From assembly GCF_046105845.1 (NCBI RefSeq), contig NZ_CP151004.1: a DNA stretch of 64,000 nt, one strand, 5' to 3'. The notes under the pieces were generated by a model. The model was not told the origin of the DNA, did no database searches, and worked only from the letters and a program-made list of their open reading frames with translations. A program made the translations under genes and the position numbers. Origin of the DNA: Escherichia coli (GTDB lineage: Bacteria; Pseudomonadota; Gammaproteobacteria; Enterobacterales; Enterobacteriaceae). Each line of letters begins with the position of its first letter. Position 1 is the first letter of the stretch. Positions 49,496-56,239 of this stretch are shown here, in pieces.

Positions 49496-50130
49496 TGTTT
49501 TGCCGCCTTGATGAGGGTGGTTTTCACCGGGAAATAATCCGCGCCGAGATACTGTTCCGACTGGCGAATTTGCCCTTCGCTGTCGATCCAATAGCGGTTA
49601 TGCCAGCGCGCCTGGTCGGTGGAGACGTTTTCGTCCAGCACGCGAACCGGAGTTTCATCGCTGCCGACTTTGACGGTATCGGTGCCATCCCATTTGAAGA
49701 CTGAGCGTGCGGTGGCGTAGCGTACCTGCTGGTACTCGGTCCAGCCCATCGTGCGCGTCCAGGTTGCACCATCAACAATTTGTGCGGGTTTAATCAGCGG
49801 GTCGGCGGCAAGGTTATTCACTTCAATCAGGTTGTCGCCGCCAAGCAAAGTCTTCACCAGACGACCATGTTGTGTGACGAGAGTGGCCTGATCCTGAGTG
49901 ACCCATTTTTGTTGTCCGTCTTCAGCGAAGGCCAGCACCACAAACAATTGCGGCCCGCCATTAAGCTGCATGTACTGGCTGGCGTAGGGCATATTTTGAA
50001 TATCATCGTCCGTCAGCTGTACGCCTGGCGTGCCGAACAGACTGTCCCACAGTGAATTGCCCAGCTCTTTAGTCGTGGCTGAACAGGCCTGTAATAGCAG
50101 GCAGATAAGAATGAGTGCAGGTCGCTTCAC
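49492..50130 (-). CDS. yjbF: YjbF lipoprotein, 212 aa (GTG start)
   Basis: GTG at 50130 preceded by GGAGAAG; (M)KRPALILICLLLQACSA lipobox; stop overlaps the yjbG start. Confidence 0.8.
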   Translation of the reverse strand: MKRPALILICLLLQACSATTKELGNSLWDSLFGTPGVQLTDDDIQNMPYASQYMQLNGGPQLFVVLAFAEDGQQKWVTQDQATLVTQHGRLVKTLLGGDNLIEVNNLAADPLIKPAQIVDGATWTRTMGWTEYQQVRYATARSVFKWDGTDTVKVGSDETPVRVLDENVSTDQARWHNRYWIDSEGQIRQSEQYLGADYFPVKTTLIKAAKQ

Positions 50131-50242
50131 GACTCTTCTCCAGAGGGGCAGAATAACCACACCGGAGTGTGGTTATGGTAAATCCCTTCATATTTCAAGC
50201 CACAGATGCAATGACCCGAATTATTTTGGGATACATACTTTA

Positions 50243-50485
50243 TTACTGGGTACTGGTGGTCGTGGTTGTTGTGGTCCCGGTATTAGAACCATCACCGCCA
50301 CCGGTTGCCGCGAGCGCGACACCCACCGCCGAGCTTACGGTGCTGACGCTGGTCGCGGAGGAACTCCCCGCCGAAACCGACGTTGCTGCCGACCCTGCCG
50401 CTTCGCCCACCTGTACAGGTGCAGCCCACGCAGAAGTCGCCGCAAGCGCAGATATGGCAAAAATGCCATACAGAACTTTTTTCAT
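50243..50485 (-). CDS. yjbE: YjbE, small secreted low-complexity Ser/Thr/Gly/Ala-rich protein, 80 aa
   Basis: [21 protein letters not shown] signal peptide, then a low-complexity body ending [10 protein letters not shown]. Confidence 0.85.
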
Positions 50486-50794
50486 AACAATTTCCCTTCA
50501 TTGAATGAATGGAGATTTACCCAAAAACATTTCGGGCGGGATCGAGTATACACAACTAAAGCATGCGAATTACGGTGTGGGGAATTAGCGATGGGGTTTT
50601 AGGATAATTGGAATGAATATCAAATATAAGTTTCAACTTATATATAAATAAGATTAAAAATCAAAAAGTTAAAATAGAATCAAAAATAATCAACCTACGT
50701 ATTTTCCGAAATCAATCACGATTAAAAATTTATTTTAGGATTAAACTCACAGCATGATTTCCGTTAAATCACAGACAAGGGGATTTATCTGATA

Positions 50795-50827
50795 AAAAAT
50801 GCCGACATAACGTCGGCATTTTTATTA
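50795..50827. terminator. Bidirectional intrinsic terminator downstream of pgi
   Basis: aaaaaatgccgac-ataa-cgtcggcatttttatt. Confidence 0.85.
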
Positions 50828-50838
50828 AGGTTATTTAA

Positions 50839-52488
50839 TTAACCGCGCCACGCTTTATAGCGGTTAATCAGACCATTGGTCGAGCTATCGTGGCTGCTGA
50901 TTTCTTTATCATCTTTCAGCTCTGGCAGAATACGGTTCGCCAGTTGTTTACCCAGCTCCACGCCCCACTGGTCGAAGGTGAAGATGTTCAGAATCACGCC
51001 CTGAGTAAAGATTTTGTGCTCATACAGCGCAATCAACGCACCCAGGCTGAACGGAGTGATTTCGCGCAGCAGGATGGAGTTGGTCGGACGGTTACCTTCG
51101 AACACTTTGAACGGCACCACGTAGTCAAGCGTTGCCGGATCTTTACCCTGATCACGATATTCCTGCTCAACCACTTCGCGGGATTTACCAAACGCCAGCG
51201 CTTCGGTCTGAGCAAAGAAGTTAGACAGCAGTTTCTGGTGATGATCAGAGAGTGGGTTATGGGTGATAGCCGGGGCGATGAAATCGCACGGTACCATTTT
51301 GGTTCCCTGGTGGATCAGCTGGTAGAACGCGTGCTGACCGTTTGTGCCTGGTTCACCCCAGATAATCGGGCCAGTCTGGTAATCCACAACGTTACCGTTA
51401 CGGTCAACATACTTACCGTTGGACTCCATATTGCCCTGCTGGAAGTACGCCGCGAAACGGTGCATATACTGGTCATACGGCAGAATCGCTTCAGTTTCCG
51501 CACCAAAGAAATTGTTGTACCAGATGCCAATCAGCGCCAGCAGGACAGGCAGGTTTTTCTCGGCAGGCGTGGTGGAGAAATGCTTGTCCATCGCGTGTGC
51601 GCCAGAAAGCAGTTCAACAAAATTATCAAAGCCGATGGAGAGAACAATCGACAAGCCAATCGCTGACCACAAAGAGTAACGGCCGCCAACCCAGTCCCAG
51701 AACTCGAACATGTTGGCAGTATCAATACCAAACTCGCCAACGGCTTTGGCATTGGTTGAGAGCGCCGCAAAGTGTTTTGCAACGTGTTTTTCATCACCTG
51801 CCGCTTTCAGGAACCAGTCACGCGCGCTATGGGCGTTGGTCATAGTTTCCTGAGTGGTGAAGGTTTTAGAGGCTACCAGGAACAGCGTGGTTTCCGGGTT
51901 TACTTTTTTCAGCACTTCCGCGATGTGAGTCCCATCGACGTTAGAAACAAAGTGCATGTTCAGGTGATTTTTGTACGGACGCAGTGCTTCGGTCACCATG
52001 TACGGGCCGAGGTCAGAACCACCGATCCCGATGTTCACTACGTCAGTGATTGCTTTGCCGGTATAACCCTTCCACTCACCGGAAATAATCGCTTCCGAGA
52101 AGGTTTTCATCTTCTCCAGCACCGCGTTGACTTCTGGCATTACGTCTTTGCCATCAACCAGAATCGGGGTATTGCTACGGTTACGCAGCGCTACGTGCAG
52201 CACGGCGCGGTTTTCAGTGCGGTTGATCTTCTCGCCAGAGAACATCGACTTAATCGCGCCCGCCAGATCGCACTCTTTCGCCAGATCCTGTAATTTCGCC
52301 AGCGTCTCTTCAGTGATGCGGTTTTTGGAGTAATCCACCAGCATCTGATCGTCGAAGGTTGCAGAGAACTTAGAAAAACGATCGCCGTCTTTAGCAAAAA
52401 GATCGGCGATCGTAACGTCTTTCATTTCATCGAAGTGTTTCTGTAGTGCCTGCCAGGCAGCGGTCTGCGTTGGATTGATGTTTTTCAT
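50839..52488 (-). CDS. pgi: Glucose-6-phosphate isomerase, 549 aa
   Basis: ATG at 52488 gives [45 protein letters not shown]... Confidence 0.98.
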
Positions 52489-52699
52489 TAGCAATACTCT
52501 TCTGATTTTGAGAATTGTGACTTTGGAAGATTGTAGCGCCAGTCACAGAAAAATGTGATGGTTTTAGTGCCGTTAGCGTAATGTTGAGTGTAAACCCTTA
52601 GCGCAGTGAAGCATTTATTAGCTGAACTACTGACCGCCAGGAGTGGATGAAAAATCCGCATGACCCCATCGTTGACAACCGCCCCGCTCACCCTTTATT

Positions 52700-53012
52700 T
52701 ATAAATGTACTACCTGCGCTAGCGCAGGCCAGAAGAGGCGCGTTGCCCAAGTAACGGTGTTGGAGGAGCCAGTCCTGTGATAACACCTGAGGGGGTGCAT
52801 CGCCGAGGTGATTGAACGGCTGGCCACGTTCATCATCGGCTACAGGGGCTGAATCCCCTGGGTTGTCACCAGAAGCGTTCGCAGTCGGGCGTTTCGCAAG
52901 TGGTGGAGCACTTCTGGGTGAAAATAGTAGCGAAGTATCGCTCTGCGCCCACCCGTCTTCCGCTCTTCCCTTGTGCCAAGGCTGAAAATGGATCCCCTGA
53001 CACGAGGTAGTT
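52700..53012 (+). promoter_or_regulatory. lysC leader containing the lysine riboswitch (L-box)
   Basis: Long structured 5' leader before lysC with L-box-like segments (agaggcgc, ggaggagcc, gggggtgcatcgccgaggtga); antisense ORFs here are artefacts. Confidence 0.85.
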
Positions 53013-54362
53013 ATGTCTGAAATTGTTGTCTCCAAATTTGGCGGTACCAGCGTAGCTGATTTTGACGCCATGAACCGCAGCGCTGATATTGTGCTTTCTG
53101 ATGCCAACGTACGTTTAGTTGTCCTCTCGGCTTCTGCTGGTATCACTAATCTGCTGGTCGCTTTAGCTGAAGGACTGGAACCTGGCGAGCGATTCGAAAA
53201 ACTCGACGCTATTCGCAACATCCAGTTTGCCATTCTGGAACGTCTGCGTTACCCGAACGTTATCCGTGAAGAGATTGAACGTCTGCTGGAGAACATTACT
53301 GTTCTGGCAGAAGCGGCGGCGCTGGCAACGTCTCCGGCGCTGACAGATGAACTGGTCAGCCACGGCGAGCTGATGTCGACCCTGCTGTTTGTCGAAATCC
53401 TGCGCGAACGCGATGTTCAGGCACAGTGGTTTGATGTACGTAAAGTGATGCGTACCAACGACCGATTTGGTCGTGCAGAGCCAGATGTAGCCGCGCTGGC
53501 GGAACTGGCCGCGCTGCAGCTGCTCCCACGCCTCAATGAAGGCTTAGTGATCACCCAGGGATTTATCGGTAGCGAAAATAAAGGTCGGACAACGACGCTT
53601 GGTCGTGGAGGCAGCGATTATACGGCAGCCTTGCTGGCGGAGGCTTTACACGCATCTCGTGTTGATATCTGGACCGACGTCCCGGGCATCTACACCACCG
53701 ATCCACGCGTGGTTTCCGCAGCAAAACGCATTGATGAAATCGCGTTTGCCGAAGCGGCAGAGATGGCAACTTTTGGTGCAAAAGTACTGCATCCGGCAAC
53801 GTTGCTACCCGCAGTACGCAGCGATATCCCGGTCTTTGTCGGCTCCAGTAAAGACCCACGCGCAGGTGGTACGCTGGTGTGCAATAAAACTGAAAATCCG
53901 CCGCTATTCCGCGCGCTGGCGCTTCGTCGCAATCAGACTCTGCTCACTTTGCACAGCCTGAATATGCTGCATTCTCGCGGTTTCCTCGCGGAAGTTTTCG
54001 GCATCCTCGCGCGGCATAATATTTCGGTAGACTTAATCACCACGTCAGAAGTGAGCGTGGCATTAACCCTTGATACCACCGGTTCAACCTCCACTGGCGA
54101 TACCTTGCTGACGCAATCTCTGCTGATGGAGCTGTCTGCACTATGCCGGGTAGAAGTGGAGGAAGGTCTGGCGCTGGTCGCGTTGATTGGCAATGACCTG
54201 TCAAAAGCCTGCGGCGTTGGCAAAGAGGTATTCGGCGTACTGGAACCGTTCAACATTCGCATGATTTGTTACGGCGCATCCAGCCATAACCTGTGCTTCC
54301 TGGTGCCCGGCGAAGATGCCGAGCAGGTGGTGCAAAAACTGCATTTTAATTTGTTTGAGTAA
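53013..54362 (+). CDS. lysC: Lysine-sensitive aspartokinase III, 449 aa
   Basis: MSEIVVSKFGGTSVADFDAMNRSADIVLSDANVRLVVLSASAGITN... Confidence 0.98.
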   Translation: MSEIVVSKFGGTSVADFDAMNRSADIVLSDANVRLVVLSASAGITNLLVALAEGLEPGERFEKLDAIRNIQFAILERLRYPNVIREEIERLLENITVLAEAAALATSPALTDELVSHGELMSTLLFVEILRERDVQAQWFDVRKVMRTNDRFGRAEPDVAALAELAALQLLPRLNEGLVITQGFIGSENKGRTTTLGRGGSDYTAALLAEALHASRVDIWTDVPGIYTTDPRVVSAAKRIDEIAFAEAAEMATFGAKVLHPATLLPAVRSDIPVFVGSSKDPRAGGTLVCNKTENPPLFRALALRRNQTLLTLHSLNMLHSRGFLAEVFGILARHNISVDLITTSEVSVALTLDTTGSTSTGDTLLTQSLLMELSALCRVEVEEGLALVALIGNDLSKACGVGKEVFGVLEPFNIRMICYGASSHNLCFLVPGEDAEQVVQKLHFNLFE

Positions 54363-54371
54363 ACACAGTAT

Positions 54372-54409
54372 GGCCCGGAAGACATTATTTCGGGCCGTAT
54401 TGTTTTTCT
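54372..54409 (+). terminator. Intrinsic terminator after lysC
   Basis: ggcccgga-agacattatt-tcgggcc followed by gtattgttttt. Confidence 0.75.
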
Positions 54410-54614
54410 TGTCATTATGCCCATAAATAAACGAGCCTGTACTCTGTTAACCAGCGTATTTATCGGAGAATAATTGCCTTTAATTTTTTTTCTGCATCTC
54501 TAATTAATTATCGAAAGAGATAAATAGTTAAGAGAAGGCAAAATGAATATTATCAGTTCTGCTCGCAAACGAATTCCCGTACACTGAACTCTCTGGCTCA
54601 CTGAGGGCACCATC

Positions 54615-54887
54615 ATGGCACTCCCCCGTATTACCCAAAAAGAGATGACTGAACGCGAGCAGCGTGAACTTAAAACACTGCTGGATCGGGCGCGGATTGC
54701 GCATGGTCGCGTACTGACCAACTCCGAAACCAACAGCATTAAGAAAGAGTACATCGATAAATTAATGGTCGAGCGTGAGGCTAAAGCGAAAAAAGCCCGC
54801 CAGTTAAAGAAAAAGCAGGCTTATAAACCGGATCCTGAAGCGTCATTTAGCTGGTCAGCAAATACGTCGACGCGCGGCAGGCGCTAA
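54615..54887 (+). CDS. yjbD: YjbD (DUF3811), 90 aa, basic and lysine-rich
   Basis: MALPRITQKEMTEREQRELKTLLDRARIAHGRVLTNSETNSIKKEYIDKLMVEREAKAKKARQ... Confidence 0.85.
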   Translation: MALPRITQKEMTEREQRELKTLLDRARIAHGRVLTNSETNSIKKEYIDKLMVEREAKAKKARQLKKKQAYKPDPEASFSWSANTSTRGRR

Positions 54888-54943
54888 TGAACAATCAACG
54901 CCTGAGATTTTCACTCGTCTGTGTGGACACAATCTTCCCCTCA

Positions 54944-54982
54944 CCCTAACCCTCTCCCCGAAGGGGCGAGGGGACTGTCCGA
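54944..54982. repeat. GC-rich intergenic palindromic repeat (box C-like)
   Basis: cccctcaccctaaccctctccccgaaggggcgagggg; a motif I recognise as recurring in enterobacterial intergenic DNA. Confidence 0.4.
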
Positions 54983-55019
54983 GCACTTTTTGGACGTTTT
55001 CATCAGTCTGAGGCGTTAA

Positions 55020-55892
55020 TCAGCGTCCCTTCTTTTTACGCCCCGGCGAGGTAAAACGCTTACCGTTGGACGCCGGGCGACCGCCTTTTTCCGCCGTTTT
55101 TTCCATCTTAACGACTGGACGTTTGATGCCCGCCGTTTTCGGTTTGGTCTTCGTTTTAGGTTTTGCCTCGGAAGAGGAATTTTCGATGAGCTTAAAGAGG
55201 TCGATTAACTCATCGTCGGTTAAATCGCGCCACTCACCCAGCGGAATGCCGCTTAAACTGACGTTCATAATGCGCGTACGCTCCAGCTTTTTCACTTCGT
55301 AACCAAAGTGCTCGCACATGCGACGGATCTGACGGTTCAGTCCCTGCACCAGGGTAATGCGGAAGACAAACGGCGCTTCTTTTTTGACTTTGCACTTTTT
55401 CGTCACCGTCCCGAGGATCGGCACCCCCGCCCCCATACCACGAATAAATTCATCGGTAATCGGTTTATCGACCGTCACCAGATACTCTTTCTCATGATCG
55501 TTACCCGCACGGAGGATCTTATTCACCAGATCGCCGTGATTGGTGAGGAAAATCAGCCCCTGGGAGTCTTTATCCAGGCGGCCAATCGGGAACACGCGTT
55601 TGCTGTGGTTAACGAAATCGACAATGTTATCGCGCTCGCCATCTTCGGTGGTGCTGACAATACCGACGGGCTTGTTCAGGGCGATAAGTACCAAATCTTC
55701 GGCTTCCCGAGGCTCAATCAACTGACCGTTTACTTTCACAACGTCGCCGGGTTTCACCTGATCGCCAATGGTGGCTCGCTTGCCATTAAGGAACACATTG
55801 CCTTGCTCGATATAGCGATCCGCTTCGCGGCGTGAGCAAATTCCGCTTTCGCTGATGTATTTATTTAAACGGACTGATGAGTCGGGCAGCAT
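55020..55892 (-). CDS. rluF: 23S rRNA pseudouridine synthase RluF, 290 aa
   Basis: [40 protein letters not shown]... (S4 domain plus RsuA-type catalytic domain); basic C-terminal tail. Confidence 0.95.
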
Positions 55893-56239
55893 AAATTCTC
55901 CTGTAAAACGCGGAATATACCGTACCTCTTAGCGGGGAAAAACAGGGTTATGCGGCAACGTCGAAATTAAATGTGATCTGCCACGCCTTTTATCACAAAA
56001 GTGTCTCCGGAAGTACGATGCAAATTTGCCTGGCAAAATAAGGATAATCAACATATTACGAATCGCTGCACACCTGTGCTGATGACTACTACGCAGAGAA
56101 ACAAATGTGCAAGAGAAAGCGCTATTTCTCCCCATGCAAAGAGTGAAAAATCGCTTTGAAAGGCCATCATGATGGGGTTATATCAGATCAAGCGGTGAGA
56201 AAGCGTATTTGCACAAATGTGCAGAACCAGGAGGCGGCA

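Follow-up and report, generated by a model that had tools for sequence, protein, structure and literature searches.

The leader of lysC, at positions 52707-53012 (+ strand) of the window, by which is meant the whole stretch of 64,000 nucleotides of Escherichia coli DNA that was analysed, is the known and already annotated E. coli lysC lysine riboswitch, of the type that controls translation, RNase E cleavage and Rho termination (probability about 0.97). An initial annotation, made from the letters of the sequence, had placed a lysine riboswitch in this leader and had proposed a covariance-model search as a check. That search gives a strong match to the lysine model RF00168 at 52725-52921 (+), which scores 99.5 bits against a gathering score of 30 and spans the full model (positions 1-182 of 182). 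Its E value is 2.9e-26 when all Rfam families are searched against the 6 kb at 50000-56000, where RF00168 is the single strong cis-regulatory match, and 3.1e-25 in an Rfam scan of the whole window at gathering thresholds. The RefSeq 'riboswitch' feature covers the same 197 nt 5' of lysC, and the element has been characterised experimentally (PMC10946432). The riboswitch is thus confirmed at a level far beyond chance, and the earlier call stands.

The match lies downstream of the inferred promoter and 91 nt upstream of lysC, on the same strand. The product of the regulated gene (CDS 53013-54362, +; RefSeq lysC) matches NF006570, lysine-sensitive aspartokinase 3, with 767 bits against a cut-off of 455, identifying it as lysine-sensitive aspartokinase III. 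The upstream neighbour is pgi, on the opposite strand. (The pgi start on the minus strand is given in the open reading frame list as a TTG at 52494, for 551 aa; the RefSeq protein, of 549 aa, begins with the ATG at 52488.) Of 5426 complete E. coli genomes, 5425 contain the 606 nt surrounding the element, and in every one of these 5425 the identity of the 309-nt leader is 99 % or more; this presence, together with the RefSeq riboswitch annotation, identifies the element as the E. coli chromosomal lysC leader. For the window itself, then, a correct call has been confirmed and a spurious open reading frame removed; this is a textbook riboswitch about which nothing is changed, and the only mildly new material is a comparative side observation, the loss of the aptamer in several related genera.

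Rfam families elsewhere in the window include the Hfq-binding sRNA sraL at 8502-8642 (+; full length, 153 bits) and the enterobacterial sRNA STnc430 at 50682-50830 (+; 89 bits), just downstream of pgi. The STnc430 region also has a weaker overlapping match on the minus strand at 50788-50901 (35 bits, below the gathering score).

When the RF00168 consensus structure is mapped onto the sequence, 47 of its 53 pairs are canonical, and the helices of the aptamer can be placed on the + strand: P1 at 52730-52735/52911-52916, P2 at 52740-52748/52795-52803, P2b at 52756-52762/52781-52787, P3 at 52807-52818/52827-52837, P4 at 52838-52848/52855-52864, and P5 at 52866-52871/52901-52906. The aptamer as a unit (52725-52921, +) is thus defined by the model match, the helix map, covariation and the RefSeq feature. 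The internal loop of P2 aligns to RF00168 with two gaps. The L-box-like conserved segments that had been noticed in the leader are borne out, as the core segments AGAGG-GC, GCCGA, UGUCAC and GUGGAG-CU are present in the covariance-model alignment and are invariant across the 18 leaders described below. The leader folds more stably than its dinucleotide shuffles (z = -2.74). Minimum free energy (MFE) folding, of either the leader or the aptamer alone, fails to give the Rfam junction; this is expected, because the fold is held by tertiary contacts, and MFE was therefore not used to define the aptamer.

Related leaders were drawn from the contigs of LysC homologues (88-94 % identity) and from a metagenome scan, in which a 19-mer from the P5/P1 3' strand served as the query and gave 55 loci, 22 of them with a lysC start downstream. 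Together the two sources supplied 19 distinct aptamer-bearing platforms, and 18 full enterobacterial leaders were aligned. (A contig scan with the pattern TTGTCACN{18,48}GTGGAGC was left out as under-specified, since its 14 fixed bases and 31 gap lengths lead one to expect about 7e4 chance matches in 298 Gb, and unrelated taxa appeared among the matches listed.)

Across these 18 leaders, the OFF structure, which was taken as the 5' hairpin, the Rfam aptamer and the helix that sequesters the Shine-Dalgarno (SD) sequence, is 88.8 % paired; sliding the 3' partners by 1-3 columns lowers the figure to 36-48 %. Both sides change in 16 of its pairs, and its covariation score of 0.191, compared with 0.118 in shuffles, is reached by none of 500 shuffles. 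The two-sided changes are confined to P2, P2b, P3 and P4; P1 and P5 are invariant and 100 % paired. RNAalifold, run with no structure supplied, finds P1-P5, the sequester hairpin and a covarying enterobacterial extension of P5, and 17 pairs in its result are compensatory.

Two further elements, the kissing loop and the hairpin at the 5' end, were judged sequence by sequence, because differences in loop length blur the alignment columns (the hairpin is 45 % paired when read by column). The L2 loop contains GCCAG (52768-52772, +), which is complementary to CUGGC in the L3 loop (52820-52824, +). This kissing pair covaries among the leaders in at least four types, GCCAG/CUGGC, AACC/GGUU, ACCGU/ACGGU and CCGGAA/UUCCGG; the longest Watson-Crick run between L2 and L3 averages 4.5 for loops of the same leader versus 2.84 for loops taken from different leaders, and a run of at least 4 bp is found in 94 % of own loop pairs versus 27 % of cross pairs. 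The 5'-terminal hairpin, CCUGCGC-UA-GCGCAGG (52713-52728, +), lies directly 5' of P1 and outside the Rfam model. It forms in 13 of the 18 related leaders, with the compensatory variant CUUGCGC/GCGCAAG, and leaders of the Cronobacter group do not have it. A possible role is stabilisation of the 5' end.

The numbering of the leader rests on published work. G309 coincides with the AUG (PMC10946432), which lies at 53013-53015 in the window, so the transcription start (+1) falls at 52707 (+) and the 5' UTR is 306 nt long. As a cross-check of this numbering, the published RNase E Site1, at 250-253, reads UCUU at 52956-52959. The '~310-nt' structured leader that was first described agrees with this length, and the start that it was given, 52700, takes in 7 nt of the promoter. 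The promoter hexamers were deduced from the published start-site numbering together with conservation. The -35 hexamer, TTGACA (52672-52677, +), would occupy -35 to -30 relative to the literature-derived start and is invariant in 7 of 9 aligned species; the -10 region, TTTATTTA (52694-52701, +), lies 16-18 bp past the -35, and within it, where the exact hexamer is uncertain, TTTATTTAT(A/G)AAT is conserved in 7 species. With a -10 region that fits the consensus poorly, the lysC promoter was missed by a sigma-70 consensus scan. Just 5' of the -35 lies a conserved block, ATGAAAAATCCGCATGACCCCATCG (52647-52671, +), that is kept in E. coli, in Kluyvera and in all five of the aptamer-less genera considered below, and that is a candidate site for regulation at the level of the promoter. 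The block is a plausible protein-binding site for lysine control of the promoter; ArgP is known to act at lysC. Promoter-associated DNA elements are mentioned in PMC10946432.

Downstream of the aptamer, the expression platform contains two helices that compete for the same strand. The SD-sequestering helix pairs CCUUGUG (leader 263-269; 52969-52975, +) with CACGAGG (leader 295-301; 53001-53007, +), which includes the Shine-Dalgarno sequence GAGG (53004-53007, +). The anti-sequester (anti-P1) helix has 17 pairs, formed between leader 190-203 and 256-268 and between 210-214 and 244-248; its 5' strand (leader 190-214; 52896-52920, +) overlaps the 3' strands of P5 and P1, and CCUUGUG contributes to its other strand. 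Since leader 263-268 is common to both, the two helices are mutually exclusive. By nearest-neighbour estimate, the anti-sequester helix has a free energy of about -21.4 kcal/mol and the sequester helix one of about -7.0, which implies that the ON fold is the default and that the OFF fold needs a ligand-stabilised aptamer; the anti-sequester helix also appears when the MFE fold is computed without constraints. Folded under constraints, the platform gives several near-isoenergetic alternatives, among which the choice was made by conservation. Among the 18 leaders the sequester helix is 94-99 % paired and essentially invariant, and it belongs to the hairpin that RNAalifold recovered without being given it; the anti-sequester helix is 97-100 % pairable, with solely one-sided changes (G-U/G-C or A-U/G-U). 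No two-sided compensatory changes occur in either helix in these leaders, so the data show that pairing is possible rather than prove that it takes place. In addition, the sequester hairpin is equally conserved where the aptamer is lacking, and its conservation therefore cannot be credited to the switch alone.

Between these strands, a small linker hairpin (leader 219-239; 52925-52945, +) is predicted in every fold, although its sequence is poorly conserved among relatives. The stretch at leader 226-270 (52932-52976, +) is rich in C and poor in G (43-50 % C and 17-20 % G in 30-nt windows), and it holds the 3' strand of the anti-sequester helix, the rut site, placed at about position 240, and RNase E Site1 at 250-253 (PMC10946432), the UCUU at 52956-52959 (+). 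In the ON fold the rut region and the RNase E sites are hidden, and in the OFF fold they are exposed, with cleavage and termination themselves being taken from the literature.

A clinical isolate, E. coli EECO1006 (NZ_CP090319.1), carries an IS1 (738-1435 of the retrieved contig piece, L185) immediately after leader position 213, just past 52919 of the window. The insertion lies between the aptamer and lysC and splits the sensor from the expression platform. In Scandinavium-like leaders (~1330-1470 of L125, and L149), an insertion of ~120-140 nt sits in the loop of the SD-sequestering hairpin, so that both strands of the sequester helix are intact but far apart.

On the best reading, these features work together as follows. 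When lysine is absent, the anti-sequester helix forms between leader 190-214, which holds the 3' strands of P5 and P1, and the C-rich leader 244-268; it leaves the Shine-Dalgarno free, hides the RNase E and Rho sites, and allows lysC to be translated. Binding of lysine in the five-helix junction locks P1 and P5 and releases the C-rich segment, whereupon the freed CCUUGUG pairs with CACGAGG and sequesters the Shine-Dalgarno; the exposed UCUU sites and rut region then permit attack by RNase E, loading of Rho, and termination at the start codon. The present analysis itself shows the match to the aptamer model and its covariation, the L2-L3 contact, two conserved helices that exclude each other, a C-rich composition and no intrinsic terminator. 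That lysine binds, where RNase E cuts, that Rho terminates and where transcription starts is known from published work. Binding of lysine by this RNA has been published (PMC10946432 and Caron 2012, cited there); once bound, it blocks translation, and RNase E cleaves and Rho terminates at G309 (PMC10946432), a model that the structural results match; the mechanism of Caron et al. 2012 is given here as PMC10946432 describes it. Experiments published for this same sequence support the mechanism (PMC10946432, PMC5584792, PMC13271884), and the assays in print for it comprise probing with lysine, reporter fusions, mapping of RNase E cleavage and tests of termination by Rho. The published work reports that in-line or SHAPE probing of the 52725-52921 RNA changes with lysine, that lysine represses a lysC leader fusion under a heterologous promoter, and that mutations breaking P1 or the CCUUGUG/CACGAGG pairing alter the regulation. 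The full mechanism, lysine-gated sequestration of the Shine-Dalgarno together with exposure to RNase E and Rho, can be assigned to 52707-53012 with very little doubt.

Two other ways of controlling lysC from such a leader were weighed. The aptamer class is shared with the L-box of Bacillus subtilis lysC, which raises the question of whether the lysine-bound aptamer simply lets an intrinsic terminator form ahead of the gene. No intrinsic terminator is found on the + strand at 52707-53012, however, there being no G+C-rich stem followed by a U-run; the platform pairs instead with the Shine-Dalgarno, and control in E. coli is known to be translational and to involve RNase E and Rho (PMC10946432). 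Attenuation of the Bacillus type is consequently very improbable. It might also be supposed that a long leader 5' of an amino-acid biosynthesis gene encodes a peptide whose translation stalls in response to charged lysyl-tRNA, as in the thr and leu operons, and a 57-codon open reading frame does lie within the leader on the + strand (52812-52985). That frame, however, starts with TTG and its translation contains zero lysines, there is no terminator, and the aptamer model accounts fully for the region, so that a stalling leader peptide deserves almost no credence beside the lysine-gated switch.

The minus strand opposite the riboswitch carries an ATG-initiated open reading frame of 181 codons (52688-53233, -), which the initial annotation had dismissed as an artefact. 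On the rival reading the 181-aa protein is real and the match to the RNA model is incidental, but an E value of 3e-26 is not incidental. The frame has no NCBIfam match and no RefSeq CDS, and no Shine-Dalgarno sequence precedes its ATG. Only in E. coli does it stay open for 182 codons; in Kluyvera it runs for 81, and across seven other genera for 53-118. Its G+C content by codon position, 0.53, 0.58 and 0.48, follows the atypical order GC2 > GC1 > GC3 and is unlike that of lysC (0.64, 0.42 and 0.55) or pgi. Finally, ~229 nt of the open reading frame are missing in five genera. The frame, the codon composition, the lack of a Shine-Dalgarno, NCBIfam, RefSeq and the deletion in five genera all agree with the earlier dismissal, and a genuine protein here is extremely improbable; the open reading frame is an artefact of G+C-rich structured RNA and of the antisense of the first 74 lysC codons.

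The comparison with other Enterobacteriaceae gave the side observation mentioned above. RF00168 is matched, with 86-94 bits, at three of eight other lysC loci (Kluyvera georgiana, Cronobacter dublinensis and Scandinavium). It was not found at the other five, those of Salmonella enterica, Citrobacter braakii, [Enterobacter] lignolyticus, Trabulsiella odontotermitis and Enterobacter asburiae, whose leaders lie at ~1340-1500 of the respective retrieved pieces (L122, L123, L126, L128 and L129). In the alignment these five leaders keep the promoter block and the distal platform, with an invariant CCUUGUG...CACGAGG-AUG; they lack the equivalent of E. coli leader ~8-236 and are 78-86 nt long. In their predicted folds, the Shine-Dalgarno again lies inside a hairpin. 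In the ON fold, GCUCU pairs with GGAGC of the aptamer. All 18 leaders with an aptamer have this GCUCU unchanged, and at its position the five aptamer-less leaders read GUUCU or GUUUU, a change that fits a constraint lost along with the aptamer.

In E. coli the aptamer is flanked by a direct repeat, CTGCGC, at 52714-52719 and 52943-52948 (leader 8-13 and 237-242). Recombining the two copies would take out 229 nt and leave a leader of 77 nt, and the alignment of this product with the 78-79-nt leaders has no gap across the junction; in Trabulsiella the junction, ACCTGCGCC, is identical to the predicted deletion product. Such a deletion would therefore produce the aptamer-less architecture, but the repeat is not statistically compelling, as a 6-mer may be there by chance.

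The published record on the distribution of the element bears on this observation. A transcriptome study of Klebsiella pneumoniae assigned an Rfam lysine riboswitch to pgi, KPHS_02470 (PMC10949472); by synteny, this is almost certainly the leader of the divergent lysC. Klebsiella thus appears to retain the aptamer, which makes its distribution in the family patchy. In a survey, the lysC riboswitch is called 'well conserved within Enterobacteriales', and Salmonella goes unmentioned (PMC5584792). No report of aptamer loss in Salmonella was found among the papers searched.

One reading of the short leaders is that the SD-sequestering hairpin is a regulatory module in its own right and not just the output of the riboswitch, the aptamer and the anti-sequester strand having been excised in at least five genera. 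This idea is tentative, with the odds somewhat against it. If it were true and unreported, it would imply a second, aptamer-independent use of the hairpin, for example by a trans-acting factor or in translation-coupled control by Rho and RNase E. It would also offer a natural comparison, among close relatives, of leaders with and without the riboswitch, and would show how the platform behaves when it has no sensor. The loss of the aptamer bears as well on proposals of lysine riboswitches as antibacterial targets, since a Salmonella lysC leader that lacks the aptamer presents no such target 5' of lysC.

Compared with known systems, the element in the window is the same as the lysC riboswitch of E. 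coli K-12 (RF00168; Caron et al. 2012, via PMC10946432; Ghosh et al. 2024), from which it has no detectable difference. The L-box of B. subtilis lysC has an aptamer of the same class, with the five-way junction of P1-P5 and the L2-L3 kissing loop, and regulates the same enzyme, aspartokinase. However, its platform is an intrinsic terminator/antiterminator (PMC10946432), whereas that of E. coli lysC contains no terminator and acts on the Shine-Dalgarno, the RNase E sites and the rut site; unlike the B. subtilis L-box, the enterobacterial aptamer also has an extra, covarying stem extension on P5. The thiM and btuB riboswitches of E. coli resemble lysC in that they sequester the Shine-Dalgarno of an enterobacterial 5' UTR in a ligand-dependent manner. 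In those two cases, decay of the mRNA is non-nucleolytic in its control and follows solely from the block to translation (PMC10946432); in lysC, by contrast, the switch itself exposes the RNase E sites and the rut site.
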